DNA of 64,000 nucleotides, taken from contig BOKM01000001.1 in assembly GCA_016860985.1 (NCBI GenBank), positions 789,857 through 853,856 on the forward strand, in the 5' to 3' direction. The stretch comes from Patescibacteria group bacterium (GTDB taxonomy: Bacteria > Patescibacteriota > Dojkabacteria > GCA-002793355). Position 1 is the first letter of the stretch; every line of letters starts with the position of its first letter. Positions 21,919 to 30,040 of the stretch are shown one piece after another. A model generated the notes under the pieces. The model saw only the letters and a program-made list of their open reading frames with translations. It was not told the DNA's origin and ran no database searches. The position numbers and the translations under genes are program-made.

Positions 21919-22157
21919 TCCTTCTTAAGCTTGATCGGATCAATTTTCCCGGATTGTTCATCTTCTACAATTTTGTGAGCGGCCATGTGAGCCAAGGCAG
22001 CTTTTTCCTCAAGATGTTTGATTGCATCTTCTCTAGTGCATGGCAAGTTCTGAGTTTTCAGGAATCGAATGGTTGTCTCGATATCTGCCTCACTAATTTG
22101 ATAACCTGAATTCTGTGTCATATGGTCGAAGTATAGCATTTTATATGTATCTCCCAA
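21915..22157 (-). CDS. hypothetical 80-aa protein, last gene of the minus-strand PLD module
   Basis: Start overlaps the PLD-gene stop by 17 nt. Confidence 0.3.
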   Translation of the reverse strand: MGDTYKMLYFDHMTQNSGYQISEADIETTIRFLKTQNLPCTREDAIKHLEEKAALAHMAAHKIVEDEQSGKIDPIKLKKD

Positions 22158-22587
22158 AATTCAAAAAATTAAACATATCTACGGCGAAGCCGCCGCCATC
22201 CAGGCGGCGCATAATTTCCCTGCTTTTTACTTGTGACAGGATATTCAAACTGCCTTCCCAAAGTATCTTTCGGTCAATTATTGCCAGTTTTCGGTGATGG
22301 TTGCCGACACAAAGAAAAACTTGAATTCCCAGGGCTTCTAGAGCCTCTATTTCGCTCTCGGATTGGACTTCGTAGCCGTCACTGTGATCATTTGGATCGC
22401 GAGTGATGATATAGACTTTAATTCCCTTGGAGTAGGCTCGCCTTAGACTTGGCCAGAGCATTTTCATTCGGCTTGAGGTGATAAATGGACTTTCGATGAT
22501 TATTTCTTCTGTAGCTTGGTCTAGATCCCTCAAGAAGGCTTTATAAAACGACTTTTCATCATGGAGTGCGGAGCTATAGTTATTCAT
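22141..22587 (-). CDS. single-HKD phospholipase-D-family nuclease (Nuc-like)
   Basis: HKD motif GNHHRKLAIIDRKILWEGSLNI (HxK(x)4D ... GSxN); 148 aa like dimeric Nuc endonucleases. Confidence 0.7.
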   Translation of the reverse strand: MNNYSSALHDEKSFYKAFLRDLDQATEEIIIESPFITSSRMKMLWPSLRRAYSKGIKVYIITRDPNDHSDGYEVQSESEIEALEALGIQVFLCVGNHHRKLAIIDRKILWEGSLNILSQVKSREIMRRLDGGGFAVDMFNFLNFGRYI

Positions 22588-23359
22588 GGCTCACCTCCAT
22601 ATTATCAATAAATACGATCTGACCATCTACCTCTTTGATCCCGAGTTCATCCAGTTTATAATACGTCCTTATAACACTGTCGAATAAGGGTTCCACCTGT
22701 GAGACAGTGAGCTCGTATTTTGCGTACCCCGAATTCTTGCCTTGTTTAATGTCATGGTAAAGCTGACCCAAACAAGTCGAAAGTTTTCCACTGTTTGAGG
22801 CTGGTCCAATAACTAGTACCAATGGCGCATTTGTTTCAATAAACTCATCTTTTTCGTACCCTAGTGGACCCACAGCAGCTTTAGGGTCTGGGTATCCGTC
22901 GATTATGTATCTATATGCAACTTGAACTTGCGAATCGCGTAACTTTGTTGCAAACGAACTAAGTTCGGAGGTAACATCACGAACCATATTAATAGCGACC
23001 GAAAATTTTACTGGAAAGGTTTCCTGGTACTCTTTCATTATTCGCCAAATAGCATCGAGATATGCCTCGTTATGATTATTAAGCATTCTATTGTTTTGAA
23101 TATCTTCGGCATTCACGCAGAACAGCAACTCGTATGGGGTGTTGATATTTTTTACAATTTCGGGCTTCACACTTGGATTGAACCCAGGCAAAACTCGTTG
23201 TGCGTGGGGGTCGTAAAGAAATTTGCCACCAATTTCGAGATACAGAGTGCCTCCTTTAAACTTCTCTAAACGTTTAGTTAAAGCCTCTTGCTGTAGCATT
23301 AGGTATTTCTGGTTGTCAAAACCAAGTTCTTTGTGTTCGATTATTTCCGTTGAGTTCAT
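22580..23359 (-). CDS. hypothetical 259-aa protein, first gene of the PLD module
   Basis: ORF with stop overlapping the PLD start; Rx4H (RMLNNH) HEPN-like motif present but not diagnostic. Confidence 0.35.
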   Translation of the reverse strand: MNSTEIIEHKELGFDNQKYLMLQQEALTKRLEKFKGGTLYLEIGGKFLYDPHAQRVLPGFNPSVKPEIVKNINTPYELLFCVNAEDIQNNRMLNNHNEAYLDAIWRIMKEYQETFPVKFSVAINMVRDVTSELSSFATKLRDSQVQVAYRYIIDGYPDPKAAVGPLGYEKDEFIETNAPLVLVIGPASNSGKLSTCLGQLYHDIKQGKNSGYAKYELTVSQVEPLFDSVIRTYYKLDELGIKEVDGQIVFIDNMEVSHE

Positions 23360-23373
23360 CTCACAATCATACT

Positions 23374-24435
23374 CTACGCCTCGAGTATTTGTGAATAATT
23401 CCCAAAAAGCATTACTACTCTATCTATTCCGAGGGCATTGCCGCTGCAGGCAGGTAGTCCGTGTTTTAGTGCGTCAACAAACTCCCAATCATAGGGATAA
23501 TTAGTCTTGTTCTTTGCTTCTTCGATTTTCGCAATTTCTCTTTCGAATGCTGCTTTTTGCAGATTTGGATCTGTGTTCTCTGTATAAGTATCGCAAATTT
23601 CAAGCCCTGCAATCATTACCTCAAAACGCTCTGCCCATACATTTCCTTTCACTTTTTCCCCGTTTTTTGGCTTTGCCAAAGGAGAAAGCTCGTGTGGGTA
23701 ATCGTAAAGAATAACTGGTTTAGTTGGGTCAAGTTCTGGTTCTATATAGGTAAGAAGGATTTGGTTAAACAATTCTTCCCATGTCGTGTTAGCCGTTACC
23801 GTAATGCCGAGTTCTGGCCTATTTGCCAGTATTTCTCCGAATTGTTTCACAGAAAAAGCACCAGTAGACTCATCCCACGTTTGCTCCAAATCAATGGATG
23901 TAAATTGCTTGAACGCTTCGTTGATGCTCAGACGAAGCCAGGGAGTTGAGAGAGTTACGGTATGTTCTCCAAATGGGATTGTTCCTTTTGGAGCAAACTC
24001 AGCTGCCAAGGCGGTAAATAACTCTTCTGTTGTTTGCATCACATTCTCGTAGTTGCTACCCTGTTCGTACCACTCAAGCATTGAAAACTCACTTAAGTGT
24101 TTGCCTGAGAGCGGCTCACCATTTCGAAAGCTTCTGGTAATGGCAAAATTGCTTCCAAAACCTGCTGCAAGTAACTTCTTTTGAAATGCCTCAGGTGAAG
24201 TCATCAGGTACTTCTTTTGCTCAATTTTACCTTCTAGCCCGATACGTTTTTCGGTGGTCTCAAATATATCGAGATAAGATTCAGGGATTAACGCGTTGTT
24301 CAGAATGGGAGGTTCAACTTCGAGTAAACCCTTTTCAGCAAAAAAACGTCGGATTACGGATATGATATTCAGTTTTAACAAATACTGCGCTTTAAACTCT
24401 GGCGAGTTTATGATTGAGGAAAAAAACGTTTGCAT
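23374..24435 (-). CDS. epmA: EF-P-(R)-beta-lysine ligase EpmA (GenX/PoxA, truncated class II LysRS paralogue)
   Basis: Class II aaRS motif 2 FRNGEP and motif 3 GNALGIDRVVML; about 350 aa; adjacent to efp. Confidence 0.75.
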   Translation of the reverse strand: MQTFFSSIINSPEFKAQYLLKLNIISVIRRFFAEKGLLEVEPPILNNALIPESYLDIFETTEKRIGLEGKIEQKKYLMTSPEAFQKKLLAAGFGSNFAITRSFRNGEPLSGKHLSEFSMLEWYEQGSNYENVMQTTEELFTALAAEFAPKGTIPFGEHTVTLSTPWLRLSINEAFKQFTSIDLEQTWDESTGAFSVKQFGEILANRPELGITVTANTTWEELFNQILLTYIEPELDPTKPVILYDYPHELSPLAKPKNGEKVKGNVWAERFEVMIAGLEICDTYTENTDPNLQKAAFEREIAKIEEAKNKTNYPYDWEFVDALKHGLPACSGNALGIDRVVMLFGNYSQILEA

Positions 24436-24451
24436 TATTGATGTTGCAAAC

Positions 24452-25015
24452 TTATTCTGTTGCTCTACCTTGATAAGTTCCGTAATACGGATCTACCTTA
24501 ATTTTTTCACCAATGTCGACAAATAATGGAACTTGAACCGTTGCTCCGGTTTCGAGTACTGCTTCTTTGGTTGCGTTTGTAGCGGTATTGCCACGAACAG
24601 CTGGAGAAGTTTCGGTTACTTCGAGAGTTACCTGTGCGGGGAACTTAATTGAGATTGGTTGTTCGTTATAGATAATAAGAATGTAGTCGCTACCAGCCTT
24701 CATGTATTGCAAGTAGGTGTCAATCAAGCTGTTTGCCAAAGTAAATTGCTCGTAGGTGTCAGGGTCCATGAAGGTAGAGTTGTTTGTGTCGCTAAAAAGG
24801 AATTGCATTGTTTTAAAATTGACGTCTAGTTCTTCCACTCTTTCGCCTGATTTGAAGGTAAAGGGAATTACTCGGTTTGTGTTAAGGTTCTTCATCTTTA
24901 CGCGGGTAAAAGCGGAACCTTTTCCTGGTGAGTAAAACTCTGCATCGGTAATATAGTATGGCTCATTATTAAACATGATAAACATGTTCTTTTTAATGTT
25001 GTCTGTTTGTGCCAT
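24452..25015 (-). CDS. efp: translation elongation factor P
   Basis: N-terminal KOW-like domain with the modified-lysine loop SPGKGSAF; 187 aa. Confidence 0.9.
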   Translation of the reverse strand: MAQTDNIKKNMFIMFNNEPYYITDAEFYSPGKGSAFTRVKMKNLNTNRVIPFTFKSGERVEELDVNFKTMQFLFSDTNNSTFMDPDTYEQFTLANSLIDTYLQYMKAGSDYILIIYNEQPISIKFPAQVTLEVTETSPAVRGNTATNATKEAVLETGATVQVPLFVDIGEKIKVDPYYGTYQGRATE

Positions 25016-25074
25016 GAAAGTATGTGTTAATTTGGTTTTCTTTGCGAATTATAGCACAGAATTGGGCTGATTGG

Positions 25075-27186
25075 TTACCTTCGTTTTGATGATTTTGCAG
25101 CAGTTTGTTGTGGGAGTTTTTGGGGAAGCTGAATAAAGAAGGTTGTTCCCTCTCCTACTTTACTTGTAAACCATACTTTCCCACCATGTGCGTCTACTAC
25201 CTTTTTGGCGATAAATAATCCGATTCCGGTACCATCTGGTCGGACAAGCTTTGCATTATCAAGTCGAGAAAAACGCTTAAAAATATGATCAGCTTTTTCA
25301 GGTGGAATGCCAATTCCAGTATCGGCAACAGAGATAAGTACCCTTTGGTCATCGCTTGAGAGTGAAACGGTTACACTACCTTTGGGGGTATAGGCAATGG
25401 CGTTATCGATGAGGTTGAGTACGGCCTCAAATACTTTGGTTTGGTCAATGGAGAGGAGTACTTTTCGTTTTGGAAGGTTTGTTTCTAATAGTAATCCTTT
25501 ATCTGATGCCTTTTTGTGAAGTTCTATCGCAGCATTCTTTACAAGTTGTAACACGTCTGTGTCTGTTCTGTTAATTACCAAACGTGCTTGCTCGATTCGA
25601 GAGGCATTAAGAATATCTTCTACGATGTTATTGAGTTGGTCAGTATTTCTAAGTACACGTTCAAGGGAACTTAACAACTCGGAAGGAACTTGACCAAGAT
25701 CTCCACTCATAATCATTGAAAGGTAGCCACGAATAACAGATATAGGCGTTCTAAGTTGATGACTAGCCATAGAAATGAAATCGCTTTTTGCTTTATCGAG
25801 CTCGCGAAGTTTTGCGTTTGCGTTAACTAGCTTTTTGGTTTGTTGCGTTACTTTTTTCTGCAAAATAGAATTGAAGTTGTTGGTTTGTTCAAGCAGTGTT
25901 CGTTCAGCAAGAGTAACTTTTAATTTTTCGACAATGAATGAAACTGCGTCAATTTCTTGCTTGGTATAAGCTATTTGTCCGCTCTTTTCGTACATAATAA
26001 GCGGAATGTCGTCTGAAATTCTGACTAATATTCCATATCCTGCCTGATTCATATAGGTATGTTGTTTGGTTGTTGGTTGCAATTCTTGAAGTAGATAGAG
26101 CTTGCCTACCAAAAATGAATTTTTCTGCAAAACTTCGCTGAGTTCTGAGTCATTTACCATAAAAGCACGAAGTTTTGGAACCTCGTTAGTAATAATTTCG
26201 ACTGCACGTTTGAGAAATTCTTGTAAGGGCAAATCTTGAGTTCGCAATAAGTCTATTTGCCGCGAAATTTCCTCTACCTTAATTTTCTCTGCTGCCAAAA
26301 TGCTTCCTACAAACGTTCCAATTGTCTTTTGAATTCCTTTGATATTAACGGCAACAATAAGTGCAAAGACTAAATCGATAAAGATGTTGAGTGGGTCGTA
26401 GAACGAAAGGTTAAGAATTCTGATTTCAAACGAACGTATCAAAAAGATGACTAAGTAAAAGAAGGCAGAAAGCACAACAACTTCCATTATCTTTGATACA
26501 AAAGTGCCAATGTCAAAGAGTCGGTGGTATAAAATCGCCTGTGTAGTAAAGTAAAAGAGAAACAGCGTGCTTACCGGCCCAAAAGTCGCGAATATATCAA
26601 GCCCGAGCATCGGGAGCACCATATTGGTCAGTAGCGCACCTGCGGCAGATAAACCAAAGCCAGTAAGTAGATACTTTAATCGAAGTTGATCGAGCCCTTG
26701 CGACTTTCTGAAACGTTTATACATTGAGCCAAGTAGGTAGAAAATTCCACCAGCAAGGTAGATAAAGTAAATGGTGTATTGGTACCCATATGAGTAAACG
26801 TACTGTCCTCCACTTGTTCGTGTGACGCCAGTAATAAAAGCGTTTCCAAGTAATGCAACATTTAGGAAAATGAACCCTGCAAGCGCAAAGAACATGAAAA
26901 TTGATTGTTTGTAATTCTTTGATGTGCTGGGAAAGTTTGAGATAAAGCCATACAGTGAGAGAGGGAGAAATGTGGGCCCTATAAAGGCAAATCGCGCGAG
27001 CATAACTCTATGCGCATCTGTAGGCGAAAATTCAAGAAAAGAGAGTGGAACAATCCACAGTACCGTAATGAGCGAAATAAGAAAATAGAAAAAGGAAGCG
27101 GGCTCTTTACGAGCACGTAGCAATGTAGTTAACCCCAAAAAAAGGTTTAAAATTCCTACAACACTAATAACTGCAACAGCAATCAT
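25075..27186 (-). CDS. sensor histidine kinase with polytopic (about 7 TM) N-terminal sensor domain
   Basis: H-box ASHQLRTPISVIRGY; HATPase_c N, G1 (DTGIGIPPE) and G2 (GTGIGL) boxes. Confidence 0.85.
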   Translation of the reverse strand: MIAVAVISVVGILNLFLGLTTLLRARKEPASFFYFLISLITVLWIVPLSFLEFSPTDAHRVMLARFAFIGPTFLPLSLYGFISNFPSTSKNYKQSIFMFFALAGFIFLNVALLGNAFITGVTRTSGGQYVYSYGYQYTIYFIYLAGGIFYLLGSMYKRFRKSQGLDQLRLKYLLTGFGLSAAGALLTNMVLPMLGLDIFATFGPVSTLFLFYFTTQAILYHRLFDIGTFVSKIMEVVVLSAFFYLVIFLIRSFEIRILNLSFYDPLNIFIDLVFALIVAVNIKGIQKTIGTFVGSILAAEKIKVEEISRQIDLLRTQDLPLQEFLKRAVEIITNEVPKLRAFMVNDSELSEVLQKNSFLVGKLYLLQELQPTTKQHTYMNQAGYGILVRISDDIPLIMYEKSGQIAYTKQEIDAVSFIVEKLKVTLAERTLLEQTNNFNSILQKKVTQQTKKLVNANAKLRELDKAKSDFISMASHQLRTPISVIRGYLSMIMSGDLGQVPSELLSSLERVLRNTDQLNNIVEDILNASRIEQARLVINRTDTDVLQLVKNAAIELHKKASDKGLLLETNLPKRKVLLSIDQTKVFEAVLNLIDNAIAYTPKGSVTVSLSSDDQRVLISVADTGIGIPPEKADHIFKRFSRLDNAKLVRPDGTGIGLFIAKKVVDAHGGKVWFTSKVGEGTTFFIQLPQKLPQQTAAKSSKRR

Positions 27187-28721
27187 GAGGTCTTTTGCTT
27201 CGATTTATTGAAGTAAACGTGCTTAATCTTCCGTCTGTTTTCTGCAAATAATTCGTCGCCATTTTCGTGGAGCATCAATTTTGGAGAAAGTGATGCGGGA
27301 TTATTCTCATAACTCTCGCGATAATCTCTATTTACCGAAGAAAGGTGTGCGGCAAGATGTTTCTCTGTTGCTTCGAGTGTTTGAGCAGAAATCGTATTCG
27401 ATTTTTTCTGTGAGGTTAATTCTATATGTACGGTGAAACGCATTGCCTGGTTTTGGTCGTAGGTTGTGTCAAGATAGTAGGAATGGACAAATGAGGCGAG
27501 TGGAGAGCTAAACAGTCCGTGCTGCACATCTGCGGGGTAAATATTTGCTCCGTCGAGTGAAACCGTTCCGTCGCTTCGACCATAAACGATAACAAGTGGT
27601 AGTTTCATGGCCCTGGCAAGGTACTTCTTTCTCTCCTGATCGGTCAAAAGTGCTGCTGCTTGTTGGAAAGTGAGTAACTGCCCTGAGTCTTGCAAATTGT
27701 ATCGAATCTTTGGTGAAACGGTGTGTTGACTAATAAGTGTGTAAATCAATTCTCCTTTTTCGTTTCTCTCTATGTAGTAGATAAGTGGGTTATATTGGCC
27801 AATAAACAAAGGAACTCGATCATCTCCGAGAACTTGCTGCCTGAGCGCTGGGTCGTTTGTTAATTTTTTTCTTAATGTGATTGTAAGGTCGGTCTCGAAA
27901 GCAACGCCAATATCGATGTCTGATGCACCATATGCGGAATATACTTCTCCTTGCGAGCCTTTAATTTTCTCTCGCATAAAGTCGCGCCATCCTTCGGAAA
28001 AGCCTTCGCCACCAGTCACCAAGTTAACGCGATAATCAGACCAGTTAAGTCCCTGCTCTTCTCCGTAGTCGATAATCTCTTTTGTAAAAGGTGGATATCC
28101 GCAGATTATATATTCATTATCTCTTCCGAGCGTTTTTATGGTGTCGATGACATTCTCTTTACTGGTTCCAATCGCTTTCACAAGTGTGCTGTGCTGCGCG
28201 ATAAAAGCGAACTTAATGCCGGTTGCCCAGGGGCCATTGGACCAGCAGTTTAGAACTACGACATTCCTTTTGTGAAACGCGTTAAAGGTGTATTCAAGTG
28301 CAAACGTGATGAGTCGATTGAGCTTTACCTCTTCTTTAAACGATCGAATCCACATTGTTGCTTTGCCCGTACTTCCGGCTGATTCATCGATATTTCCAGA
28401 AAATGGAAGTTGTCCGTCGAGCAATCGTGAAAGTAAAGGGAAAGTCTGGATATAGTTTGATTTGGTTGTGAGCGGCAGTTTTTGGAAATCTTTTACGCTT
28501 TTTACAGTGGTGAGTTCAGCTCCATTTATTTTTAAAAATTTTGCATACGCAGGTACTTTTGGACCAATAGCTCGAACATATACGGCAGCTTTAAGTCTGC
28601 CGAGCATCGTAAATACTGCTGGAGGTGTATGCGTGACGGCGAACTTTAACACATACGGATTTATCATCAGAAGGGTCTCGAAGGTTTCGAGTAGCGTAAG
28701 GAGCAGCGTATACATAAGCAT
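27183..28721 (-). CDS. PaaK/CapK/F390-synthetase-like adenylate-forming enzyme (ANL superfamily)
   Basis: LPLTTKSNY and ESAGSTGKATMW (SSGTTGKPT-type AMP-binding P-loop) match phenylacetate-CoA ligase family; start/stop overlap with the flanking RR and HK genes. Confidence 0.7.
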   Translation of the reverse strand: MLMYTLLLTLLETFETLLMINPYVLKFAVTHTPPAVFTMLGRLKAAVYVRAIGPKVPAYAKFLKINGAELTTVKSVKDFQKLPLTTKSNYIQTFPLLSRLLDGQLPFSGNIDESAGSTGKATMWIRSFKEEVKLNRLITFALEYTFNAFHKRNVVVLNCWSNGPWATGIKFAFIAQHSTLVKAIGTSKENVIDTIKTLGRDNEYIICGYPPFTKEIIDYGEEQGLNWSDYRVNLVTGGEGFSEGWRDFMREKIKGSQGEVYSAYGASDIDIGVAFETDLTITLRKKLTNDPALRQQVLGDDRVPLFIGQYNPLIYYIERNEKGELIYTLISQHTVSPKIRYNLQDSGQLLTFQQAAALLTDQERKKYLARAMKLPLVIVYGRSDGTVSLDGANIYPADVQHGLFSSPLASFVHSYYLDTTYDQNQAMRFTVHIELTSQKKSNTISAQTLEATEKHLAAHLSSVNRDYRESYENNPASLSPKLMLHENGDELFAENRRKIKHVYFNKSKQKTS

Positions 28722-29276
28722 TTAGCCGAAAAGCAATTTCTTTTTTATATCGTCAAACTCTTGTTGAGTAATCACGCCTTCGTCTAAAAGCTTTTTGTAG
28801 CGCTCAAGCTTTTCTGCAATTATTTCGTCTTTATCTTTATCGGGAACTGAAGGCTTTACAGCTGCCTCGCTACCCTCTCGTGGTGTTTGGGTGAGCCCGA
28901 GCAATTCTTTGATCTTTGCAACTACCATTGTAGGAGTTGTGTTTGCTTTGACCATATATTCGGTCGCTCCAAGCGCCTTTGCTTCGCGGATATTTTCATA
29001 TTGACCAAGGTTGGAGAGTACAATAATAATTGCATCGATTTTTGAGTTGTTTTTGAGGGCTTTTAACACTTCAAAGCCATTCATATTTGGCATGAGGATG
29101 TCGAGAAGTATTAGCTGTGGGTGAACTTCGACTGCCTTTAAAATGCCTTGTTCGCCGTCACTAGCCGTTTCTACCCGAAAACCCTCTAGTGAGAGTTTTA
29201 GCCGATACATTTCGACTAAGTCTTGGTTATCTTCAATAATAAGGACGGTTGGTATTGTCTGTTTGGCGGTAGCCAT
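28722..29276 (-). CDS. response regulator: REC domain plus C-terminal SHOCT-like domain, no DNA-binding output
   Basis: VLIIEDN, LILLDILMP phospho-Asp site; C-terminus LERYKKLLDEGVITQQEFDDIKKKLL is SHOCT-like. Confidence 0.7.
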   Translation of the reverse strand: MATAKQTIPTVLIIEDNQDLVEMYRLKLSLEGFRVETASDGEQGILKAVEVHPQLILLDILMPNMNGFEVLKALKNNSKIDAIIIVLSNLGQYENIREAKALGATEYMVKANTTPTMVVAKIKELLGLTQTPREGSEAAVKPSVPDKDKDEIIAEKLERYKKLLDEGVITQQEFDDIKKKLLFG

Positions 29277-29524
29277 ACTCCATAATAGTGTATTAACTAG
29301 ATTAAACGATTATGAAGGATTTTTAGTGAGAAGTAAAGGAGGAATAGTTATAGAAAACGAAAGAAGGGAGAGGTGAGATTTTTTAGTATGGAAAATTTGA
29401 AAAAAAGGAGACAACTGTGAAGCAGAGAGAGATTTTATAAAGAATGGGGCATTTGATTCGTCTTGCGACAATTCAAAAATTTCTTCATAAACTCTTTCTG
29501 CCTCACAGCCGGTTGCGACTGCGC

Positions 29525-29755
29525 TTATTCGTTGGCTTTGGGGGCCCGCGAAAATTGCTTGCGCAAGTCGGAAAGGTTGGTGGTGATGGTAGTACCCAGG
29601 CTCTTGACGAAATCCTGTTCCAACACCCAATTGATGATGGTTGCGACGACCGCGGCGATGAGAACAAGGACGAGTCCCTGCCAAATCTTCCGCAGAAGTG
29701 AAGCCTTCCACCAATTTTTCAAACCCTTCAAAACGTTGTTTTCTTTCATGGCCAT
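29525..29755 (-). CDS. small (76 aa) single-TM membrane protein
   Basis: AAGGAG SD upstream of ATGGCCATG; one TM helix; lies in a locally GC-rich patch where all six frames are open. Confidence 0.4.
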   Translation of the reverse strand: MAMKENNVLKGLKNWWKASLLRKIWQGLVLVLIAAVVATIINWVLEQDFVKSLGTTITTNLSDLRKQFSRAPKANE

Positions 29756-30040
29756 GTCTCCTTTTTACAAAATGGTTTACTTGCAACGAACTAGGTGATC
29801 CCCAAATGTTAGGAACCTTCTAATTCGTTGCAAGTTGTCTTCAAGGAGTTTGTCCATGAATAAGTCAACGAGCTTTCTTCTCGAGCCCTAAGGCATCGAA
29901 AATAATATTGGTATTATAGGGTATTTAAAAAATCTTGTCAAGGGCTATAGGTCAAGGGAGAATTTCGGGGCAGGGAAATGATATACAAAAGTGCCAAGGT
30001 GGCGGGTATTTCTGTATATACTTCTCCTGCCCCGAAACGC

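Follow-up and report, generated by a model that had tools for sequence, protein, structure and literature searches.

A PaaK-like enzyme and a kinase sensor half as a candidate exchangeable cassette in a two-component operon of Candidatus Dojkabacteria

In the agrBDCA locus of Staphylococcus, a variable block that takes in the genes for the processing enzyme and the signal, along with the AgrC sensor half, is combined with a conserved AgrA and a conserved AgrC kinase domain, and recombination breakpoints fall within the kinase gene. CqsA/CqsS and LuxM/LuxN are synthase-receptor pairs for small-molecule autoinducers, with CqsS and LuxN each sensing a hydrophobic small molecule; we know of no cassette polymorphism of the kind described below for either pair. 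In the coenzyme F390 synthetase/hydrolase and LuxD-LuxE systems, an activated compound is formed and broken down again by a PaaK-related enzyme paired with a hydrolase or an acyl transferase; for F390, a role as a stress reporter has been proposed. To our knowledge, no sensor kinase is wired to either system. CPR bacteria and DPANN archaea are attached to other cells and have very few regulators, and we are aware of almost nothing on how they sense partners or kin. In comQXPA of Bacillus subtilis, the modifying enzyme and the N-terminal membrane domain of ComP are variable and the kinase core and ComA are conserved (PMC4008528), the pherotype locus being also covered by Tortosa 2001, as cited in PMC4008528.

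The locus analyzed here, from an ultra-small member of Candidatus Dojkabacteria (CPR), resembles comQXPA in that a putative signal-making or signal-modifying enzyme gene lies beside the gene for a polytopic membrane histidine kinase, in that the enzyme and the N-terminal membrane domain of the kinase are polymorphic against a conserved kinase core and response regulator, and in that the genes are co-directional with frequent overlaps. With agr it shares a variable block and sensor half set against a conserved regulator and kinase domain, with breakpoints inside the kinase gene, and with CqsA/CqsS and LuxM/LuxN a cytoplasmic synthase gene adjoining a multi-pass kinase without a large periplasmic domain. 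Unlike comQXPA, it has no ComX-like precursor peptide gene, its enzymes are of carboxylate-adenylating types (ANL, ThiF and others) rather than an isoprenyl transferase, its regulator is encoded upstream and ends in SHOCT, with no LuxR-type DNA-binding domain, and whole enzymes of unrelated folds are swapped, rather than alleles of one gene. The ribosomal peptide thiolactone and the LytTR-type DNA-binding regulator of agr are likewise absent, and CqsA and LuxM differ in chemistry, being PLP-dependent and acyl-homoserine-lactone synthases, with hybrid kinases that feed a phosphorelay.

Within the window, i.e., the whole 64-kb stretch of DNA that was analyzed, the previously noted operon consists of 3 tightly packed, co-directional ORFs on the minus strand, and there is no second two-component system. 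Its features are as follows:

28722..29276, minus strand: response regulator, 184 aa
27183..28721, minus strand: PaaK-fold adenylate-forming (ANL) enzyme, 512 aa
25075..27186, minus strand: histidine kinase, whole ORF, 703 aa
25822..27186, minus strand: kinase sensor half (aa 1-455), from the AlphaFold model, hydropathy, PF16927 in orthologues and co-variation with enzyme type
25075..25821, minus strand: kinase core (aa 456-703), HisKA (H476) and HATPase_c, from Pfam, motifs and cross-cassette identity
29309..29337, minus strand: promoter-like site TTTACT-17-CATAAT, from a consensus scan and alignment

The original prediction, that start and stop codons overlap across all 3 genes, holds for the ligase and the kinase, whose stop and start share 4 nt (ATGA), as also in L001, L002 and L102, but not for the regulator and the ligase, where the TAA is directly followed by the ATG (0 nt between, or a 6-nt gap if Met3 of the ligase is the start, as called in its relatives). 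The view that the 3 genes form one unit is borne out by the conservation of the arrangement in Dojkabacteria. A promoter-like site is predicted, by consensus match, approximately 30 nt upstream of the regulator start codon, in a stretch that aligns to L001 and L002 and, less exactly, to L009.

The kinase carries HisKA (466-533) and HATPase_c (581-690) domains by Pfam, with a complete motif set (H-box His476; N, G1 and G2 boxes NLIDNAI, DTGIGI and GTGIGL). Its AlphaFold model displays 7 transmembrane helices (2-218), 2 more membrane helices (226-296), a small alpha/beta (GAF/PAS-like) domain and a long linker helix. The HisKA_7TM model PF16927 gives no direct match to this protein at E≤0.1; orthologues with 54-66% identity carry it, and an iterative search ties the window kinase to PF16927-positive proteins; the bundle is putatively of the HisKA_7TM type. 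In the regulator, Response_reg (aa 11-117, E 5e-20), with all phosphoacceptor residues in place (E15/D16, D59, S88, K110), is followed by a low-complexity linker of approximately 30 aa and by SHOCT (PF09851; aa 155-182; 29.9 bits, above the gathering threshold of 27), a tail of 2 helices and 28 aa. Neither Pfam nor NCBIfam detects a DNA-binding output domain (OmpR, NarL, LytTR or the like), and the linker and tail are too short for one, in agreement with what had been proposed; NCBIfam matches are confined to the REC part, on which the automatic JGI name "DNA-binding response OmpR family regulator" solely rests. REC-SHOCT proteins form approximately 35 clusters in Patescibacteria, and SHOCT is conserved in approximately 30 regulator clusters. 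Judged by their motifs, kinase and regulator have what a two-component pair requires, and the conserved operon suggests phosphotransfer from the former to the latter.

The 512-aa protein encoded between them has no Pfam match even at E 10, AMP-binding (PF00501) and GH3 (PF03321) included. It is matched by the NCBIfam PaaK model TIGR02155 (E 9e-14) and by the PDB entry for PaaK 4r1l (E 8e-10), with its catalytic motifs aligned to those of PaaK. At 50.8 bits, far under the equivalog cut-off of 646.3, orthology to PaaK was rejected. The AlphaFold model (pLDDT 85.5) adopts the two-domain ANL/PaaK fold, and the best Foldseek matches in the PDB are BT_0428 and PaaK1/2 (E 1e-21 to 1e-18), with target-normalized TM-scores of 0.6-0.7. 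The motifs comprise SAGSTGKAT at 114-122 (P-loop, A3), YGASD at 264-268 (A5), RYNLQD at 340-345 (A7 Asp D345), GRSDG at 381-385 (A8 hinge G381-R382-x-D384) and the A10 lysine K500; the P-loop, YGASD, D345, GRxD and K500 are invariant in family alignments of 27 and 18 sequences. Thus, by sequence and model, the middle protein is a predicted enzyme of the PaaK-like branch of the ANL superfamily. It shares with PaaK and BT_0428 (PDB 2y27, 2y4n, 4r1l) the two-domain fold and the P-loop, hinge and C-terminal lysine motifs, but is only approximately 18% identical to them and approximately 80 aa longer, and lacks the paa catabolic context.

The presence of an ANL ligase inside a two-component system had been considered unusual, which understates the case, because the position is a variable slot. 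Comparison of 5 sister Dojkabacteria loci, in one of which (L114) the contig ends ahead of any kinase, revealed that the slot between the regulator and the kinase core holds a PaaK-like ligase, a ThiF protein with a partner, or a 664-aa protein, and that the sensor half of the kinase changes together with the enzyme. Between L110 and L111, the regulator (P0141) is 100% and the kinase core 94% identical, whereas the 7TM region and the middle domain are 19% and 17% identical and the slot enzymes are unrelated (the 664-aa protein in one, ThiF and a 325-aa protein in the other). Their 92% DNA identity ends 5 nt past the regulator stop codon and returns (90%) at approximately kinase residue 490, 18 aa ahead of HisKA. 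Similarly, L113 and L114, which encode an identical regulator (P0133) with unrelated enzymes, are 98.9% identical in DNA across 6.4 kb, ending at the first cassette gene. Across cassette types, kinase cores are 48-56% and sensor halves 17-25% identical, and a 70-nt spacer after the regulator is common to different cassette types. Sensors of the PaaK type are at least 35% identical to one another, including those of L005 and L102, where kinase-core identity to the window protein is just 30-32%, and sensors of the ThiF type, including that of the kinase-less L106, at least 37%; identity between the 2 types is 20-25%. On these identities, the 7TM subtype follows the neighboring enzyme type across contexts, and enzyme and subtype are inherited as a pair, uncoupled from regulator and kinase core. 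The layout of the comQXPA and agr pherotype loci, in which a conserved regulator and a conserved kinase core flank a variable enzyme and sensor half, is thus found here at the level of sequence.

The exchange bears on the target of the regulator. The original prediction offered the ligase as an output enzyme, bound and regulated by the phosphorylated REC-SHOCT protein, as would suit a regulator that has no DNA-binding domain and whose gene abuts that of the ligase. We disfavor this model and regard it as very unlikely, since the same regulator accompanies unrelated enzymes in both pairs of loci, ligase-7TM pairs occur without an adjacent regulator, and an orphan REC-SHOCT regulator exists (L107). 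Furthermore, the regulator is 80-89% identical across loci, comparable to EF-P at the same loci (81-82%), whereas the ligase diverges to 62%. Being as conserved as EF-P and common to unrelated enzymes, the regulator should act on something that is itself conserved.

A gene-neighborhood survey showed that homologous ligases adjoin sensor and two-component genes elsewhere as well. Ligases with 42-50% identity that lack the regulator and lie in contexts of other kinds are still followed by a HisKA_7TM protein (L005, L102-104, the P0014 contig and L089), the L005 pair being located inside a conjugative-element-like region. Other partners have a GAF-HD-GYP output (L101), no kinase domain (L106) or a C-terminus of unknown type (L035, L068). 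In DPANN archaea, a sensor-kinase-like gene is located within 3 kb of the ligase homologue in 29 of the 34 loci; these partners are soluble rather than 7TM proteins. A sensor neighbor is missing from many members of the family; among the Actinomycetes, only 1 of 7 has one, and at strict settings most Chloroflexota ligases have none. The linkage is nevertheless conserved from Dojkabacteria and unaffiliated contigs to Bdellovibrionota-like MAGs and DPANN archaea, with translational coupling of the two genes, which refutes the idea that an unrelated metabolic gene came by chance to lie within a two-component operon and leaves it next to no probability.

A role in envelope decoration has to be weighed in the same context. 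ANL enzymes do decorate envelopes, and immediately upstream of the operon, in conserved synteny, lie GT2, FAD oxidase and two GT4 genes. A DltA/CapK-like adenylation would modify a surface glycopolymer made by this glycosyltransferase cluster, with the kinase monitoring the envelope and the locus varying as capsule and O-antigen loci do, and the predicted anchoring of SHOCT proteins to the inner membrane face (PMC11237479) would fit. We consider this improbable, since the ligase-7TM pairs of L005, L102 and L106 have no glycosyltransferase context, the cassette contains no carrier protein or membrane transferase, and the change of the sensor half with the enzyme would go unexplained.

From the domain identities, operon packing, cross-lineage ligase-sensor linkage, breakpoints and correlation of enzyme type with 7TM subtype, we infer a different arrangement, in which the PaaK-like enzyme would constitute one specificity module together with the kinase's membrane sensor half, this module being exchangeable as a cassette between the conserved regulator and kinase core in Dojkabacteria. 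The enzyme would adenylate a carboxylic acid using ATP and then yield a thioester, amide or ester product, to which the co-inherited 7TM and GAF-like sensor half would respond; the conserved kinase core would phosphorylate the REC-SHOCT regulator, and the latter may act, by SHOCT-mediated oligomerization or membrane association, on a conserved target other than DNA. That enzyme and sensor form a functional pair is likely. Of the 2 roles originally suggested for the ligase, generation or handling of a ligand for the 7-TM kinase is favored by the co-inheritance of enzyme and 7TM region apart from the regulator and core. Because the cassette is laid out as in the comQXP and agr pherotype loci, the compound is taken to be a self-made, private signal, a step that we make tentatively; the complete explanation, a module that makes and reads such a signal, has a chance just short of even.

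Co-inheritance would be just as compatible with a sensor of external substrates. Scavenging from hosts is common to CPR and DPANN organisms, and the 7TM half could detect an external or host-derived carboxylic acid, aromatic or fatty, that the ligase would activate for assimilation or detoxification. Alternatively, the ligase could serve as a trigger enzyme, contacting the kinase directly and thereby informing it of substrate flux; the translational coupling points to matched amounts, which a complex would call for. The diversity of the cassettes would then mirror that of the compounds offered by hosts or environments. In Chloroflexota, the genes for a 7TM-SARP-like regulator (Pfam match on L051) and for the ligase are divergently transcribed, as is usual for a regulator and its target, although this link is unstable, having been lost on re-survey and reaching an hhalign probability of only 46%. 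The DPANN partners display a weak V4R-like motif (E 0.06-0.08), V4R domains being sensors of aromatics (PMC5847659). We hold substrate sensing to be rather unlikely, since allele-like replacement with breakpoints within the kinase gene and flanks of 92-99% identity is typical of diversifying social loci and not of catabolic operons (PMC4008528). The identifiable cassette enzymes are all biosynthetic carboxylate activators (ANL, E1/ThiF, HisRS/HisZ-like with DDAH-like), some in sets of 2 or 3, and the cassettes contain no transporter or downstream catabolic gene. The regulator, moreover, cannot switch genes on by itself; lacking a DNA-binding output, it also leaves no autoinduction loop visible under the private-signal reading. 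For such a signal, no export or precursor gene was identified, and the genes in the window, separated by 0 nt and −4 nt, have no space between them for a precursor peptide gene.

The locus provides a concrete candidate for sensing in these organisms, with an enzyme family of approximately 500 aa, lacking a Pfam model and comprising approximately 900 representative clusters, that is linked to sensors in both CPR and DPANN, and with a cassette architecture known from Firmicutes as the mark of strain-specific pheromone channels. Should the enzyme product be the kinase ligand, it would represent a new class of autoinducer chemistry, and the HisKA_7TM sensor domain and REC-SHOCT regulators would each gain a first function. 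A broader proposition, which we regard as speculative and rather doubtful, is that a hypervariable "signal synthase + receptor" cassette defines private communication types in CPR, with unrelated carboxylate-adenylating enzymes, each with its own 7TM subtype, feeding one highly conserved REC-SHOCT regulator whose action would not involve DNA binding, and with the ligase likewise wired to DPANN sensors; if true, a widespread, unrecognized class of signal-generating enzymes would exist in the 2 main episymbiotic groups of microbes. The enzyme-7TM pairing offers a route to the ligands of an uncharacterized sensor family under the rival readings as well.

The enzyme family comprises 889 representatives (E≤1e-30) and includes ligase-ThiF and LuxD-like-ligase (P0258) fusions. 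An alpha/beta hydrolase is found at 24 of the 34 DPANN ligase loci, and this pairing, like the P0258 fusion, is reminiscent of the F390 and LuxD-LuxE systems; the NCBIfam F390 synthetase model does not match the window enzyme significantly (E 0.11). A distant homologue, P0097, carries PF00501, and another homologue, P0071, is named GH3 by NCBI.

Three minus-strand ORFs exactly fill the interval 25075..29276, for which a two-component operon had been predicted, and a promoter-like site lies just ahead of them:

28722..29276, minus strand: response regulator, ORF of 184 aa
27183..28721, minus strand: middle protein (ligase), ORF of 512 aa
25075..27186, minus strand: histidine kinase, ORF of 703 aa
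29337..29309, minus strand: promoter-like site TTTACT-17-CATAAT, ~30 nt upstream of the regulator

The original prediction had start and stop codons overlapping throughout the trio, which is correct for the ligase and kinase, which share an ATGA (4-nt overlap), but not for the regulator and ligase, which abut with 0 overlap, the first ligase ATG coming immediately after the regulator TAA; with Met3 as the ligase start, as called in relatives, a 6-nt gap follows the regulator. The promoter-like site falls within sequence alignable to related contigs, and no other two-component system is present in the 64-kb window. The nearest genomes are those of Candidatus Dojkabacteria (WS6, CPR/Patescibacteria), including the complete 889-kb CP129470.1, and a 96% identical partial ligase copy is carried on one Dojkabacteria MAG contig. 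The trio was found again in Dojkabacteria with full flanking synteny, down to 63% ligase identity. On the upstream side, the conserved flank comprises genes for GT2, an FAD oxidase and two GT4 proteins; on the downstream side, it comprises EF-P, an EpmA-like gene and DUF1846.

The regulator comprises a Pfam Response_reg domain (residues 11-117, E 5e-20), with E15/D16, D59, S88 and K110 all in place, and a SHOCT domain (residues 155-182, 29.9 bits against a cut-off of 27). Neither Pfam nor NCBIfam revealed a DNA-binding domain, in agreement with the original prediction. The same layout (171-189 aa) recurs in ~30 clusters in Patescibacteria, some of them orphans. According to one proposal (PMC11237479), SHOCT serves to anchor or assemble proteins on the inner side of the membrane. 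The regulator is conserved at the level of EF-P, with identities of 89% and 82%, respectively, between the window and locus L002, and of 80% and 81% between the window and locus L112. Its C-terminal Gly ('...LLFG') was considered as an E1/ThiF-type substrate and rejected, since the termini of the orthologues vary (FG, FS, FA, ED, FE, GSL, ESI).

The middle protein shares its fold with PaaK: its AlphaFold model (pLDDT 85.5) matched PaaK structures (Foldseek E 1e-21, ~18% identity), and PDB PaaK sequences were recovered at E 8e-10. The NCBIfam PaaK equivalog model was matched at E 9e-14, yet the score of 50.8 bits falls short of the 646-bit cut-off, and no Pfam model was matched, even at E 10. 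Because the structural match is accompanied by adenylation motifs invariant throughout the family, while the NCBIfam score is below the cut-off, the protein is predicted to be a PaaK-fold adenylate-forming enzyme rather than a PaaK orthologue. Of the 1.84 billion representatives searched, 889 belong to the family at E ≤ 1e-30, and in some proteins the ligase is fused to ThiF, a LuxD-like acyl transferase or a nitroreductase-like domain; a metagenome scan added merely 14 further loci and a viral contig scan yielded no relatives. The kinase has HisKA and HATPase_c domains with every catalytic box. The model of its sensor half (residues 1-455; pLDDT 72) contains, besides seven transmembrane (7TM) helices, a further pair of helices, a small alpha/beta domain and a long linker helix. 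The window kinase did not match PF16927 directly, whereas orthologues at 54-66% identity carry this domain; the 7TM assignment thus rests on the orthologues and a moderate-confidence model. Fold searches returned only weak GPCR-like seven-helix matches (E ~6e-4, TM-score 0.3-0.5), which reflect topology, and GPCR homology was rejected. In the literature searched, we found no PaaK-like enzymes within two-component operons, no described Dojkabacteria kinases and no description of REC-SHOCT regulators.

The key result came from searches that took the regulator, not the ligase, as their starting point: sister Dojkabacteria loci with the same flanks differ in the genes that separate regulator and kinase.

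Genes following the conserved regulator in five sister loci (metagenome assemblies)
L110: 664-aa protein lacking any known domain, before the kinase
L111: ThiF and a 325-aa partner, before the kinase
L112: ThiF and a 290-aa partner, before the kinase
L113: ThiF and a 357-aa partner, before the kinase
L114: HisRS/HisZ-like, DDAH-like and a third soluble protein; the contig stops before any kinase

The ThiF partners are mutually homologous. Sequence searches of the 664-, 325-, 290- and 357-aa proteins against Pfam and NCBIfam, and of the 664- and 357-aa proteins against PDB, returned nothing. The third L114 gene, at the contig end, was rejected as a 7TM kinase: its product is soluble, and a 27-37% 'identity' was an alignment artefact. 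The regulator (P0141) encoded by L110 is identical to that of L111. The DNA of the two loci is 92% identical until 5 nt beyond the regulator stop, unalignable over the next ~3.4 kb, and 90% identical again from kinase residue ~490, 18 aa ahead of HisKA; at the protein level, identity is 100% in the regulator and 94% in the kinase core, against 19% in the 7TM region and 17% in the middle domain. Similarly, in L113 and L114, both with regulator P0133, 6.4 kb of 98.9% identical DNA leads up to the first cassette gene, beyond which the two sequences are unrelated. The original alternative that the ligase is the output enzyme targeted by the regulator is therefore disfavoured, since identical regulators serve unrelated enzymes in both pairs.

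It is the adjoining enzyme, and not the genome, that the 7TM subtype follows. In a comparison of four Dojkabacteria loci, PaaK-type sensors share 59-73% identity (window and L001: 96%); with those of L005 and L102, whose kinase cores are merely 30-32% identical to that of the window, they share 35-40%. ThiF-type sensors share 46-55% identity with each other and 37-38% with a kinase-less protein (L106). Between the PaaK and ThiF types, sensor identity is only 20-25%, against 48-56% for the kinase cores and 65-81% for the regulators. Judging from these sequence comparisons, the enzyme gene(s) and the kinase sensor half behave as one exchangeable specificity unit.

The function of the whole system is entirely inferred. 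Taken alone, co-inheritance of enzyme and sensor fits equally well with sensing of an external substrate ahead of its processing by the enzyme, with direct enzyme-to-sensor contact, or with the proposal of the original prediction that the ligase makes a ligand for the 7TM kinase. We favour the last of these, in which the cassette enzyme would make a small molecule to be read by the cognate 7TM sensor, because all identifiable cassette enzymes (ANL, E1/ThiF, class II aaRS-like) are ATP-dependent carboxylate activators of biosynthetic type. The regulator would act via its SHOCT tail on a conserved non-DNA target. In agr, which is laid out like the cassette locus, the variable block encodes the signal-making machinery and the ligand-binding part of the receptor. 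The variable block of comQXPA is of the same kind (PMC4008528) and, like the enzyme/sensor unit of the window locus, lies between a conserved regulator and kinase core. The cassette locus, with its putative signal, resembles a pherotype-type quorum-sensing locus but lacks one defining feature, the precursor peptide gene.

The association of ligase and sensor extends beyond the trio, as the original prediction required of homologues elsewhere. Ligases at 42-50% identity, in unrelated contexts without the regulator (L005, L102-104, the P0014 contig and L089), are directly followed by a HisKA_7TM protein. Attachment of the enzyme product to the cell envelope, which the adjacent glycosyltransferase genes might suggest, is less likely, given the ligase-7TM pairs that have no glycosyltransferase genes around them. 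The 7TM partners vary in output: that of L101 carries GAF-GAF-HD-GYP, that of L106 has no kinase domain and is separated from the ligase by a ThiF gene, and those of L035 and L068 have a C-terminus of unknown type. DPANN archaea account for 34 of the 80 best GTDB loci; in 29 of these 34, a soluble sensor-kinase-like gene lies within 3 kb of the ligase, and in 24 an alpha/beta hydrolase directly adjoins it. Several of the DPANN kinases were confirmed by Pfam HATPase_c. Sensor linkage was seen at 1 of 7 Actinomycetes loci, and most Chloroflexota loci showed none at strict settings. A Chloroflexota 7TM-SARP partner (hhalign probability 46%) is a weak lead: a single iterative search and a Pfam match on L051 pointed to it, and stricter settings did not reproduce it.

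In L005 (1..13539), the pair (ligase 50% identical, no regulator) has VirB4/TraG-like ATPase, M23 peptidase, SSB and integrase genes as neighbours. The region looks like a conjugative or integrative element, and the two-gene module may thus be mobile. A four-gene cluster recurs in DPANN (L006, L015, L017, L020, L021, L023, L037, L046 and others), comprising genes for a sensor-kinase-like protein, a ~200-244-aa protein, the ligase and a convergent alpha/beta hydrolase. The kinase-like protein is soluble (~650-690 aa) and occurs with either of two N-termini, of which one bears a weakly V4R-like CxxKGxxxC motif. The ~200-244-aa neighbour has a receiver-like N-terminal sequence, yet no Pfam support, and is not claimed as a receiver.

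A gene string conserved in Dojkabacteria lies downstream of the trio (22580..25015, minus strand; L001, L002, L112) and is made up of EF-P, an EpmA/PoxA-like class II synthetase paralogue and DUF1846. A tie of the system to the EF-P and EpmA-like genes was rejected, as ligase-7TM pairs exist without them. Between the kinase stop and EF-P start, the 59-nt spacer (25016..25074, minus strand) holds TGTGCTATAAT, an extended -10-like element, so EF-P may have its own promoter instead of relying on read-through from the kinase. The EF-P loop Lys is present ('SPGKGSAF'), and the sequence stretches inspected showed no EpmB-like aminomutase. DUF1846, which may be linked to EF-P modification, also occurs near an orphan REC-SHOCT regulator in L107 and L108. 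In the window (22141..23359, minus strand) it has 259 aa, against 353-356 aa in L001/L002; in place of the C-terminal ~100 aa there is a PLD-like (PLDc_2) ORF of 148 aa with an 8-nt overlap, and an insertion or replacement may have truncated the gene.

Upstream of the operon, a perfect sigma-70 consensus promoter, TTGACA-17-TATAAT (29941..29913, minus strand), is followed by a ~150-nt leader (region 29756..29941) without a match in Rfam. The leader precedes a small ORF (29525..29755, minus strand) for a conserved 76-aa single-TM protein. A 158-aa TTG ORF (29310..29786, minus strand), overlapping both in another frame, is probably not a gene. L001 and L002 carry near-identical copies of the leader, even though the neighbouring proteins share merely 36-62% identity with those of L002. 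Lying just ahead of the operon, the leader is a candidate for a new cis-regulatory RNA or ncRNA. Its two hairpins show compensatory changes: the P1 pair is G-C, U-A or A-U depending on the sequence, and the pairing of the long hairpin (~29834..29780) is kept in the diverged L112 copy.
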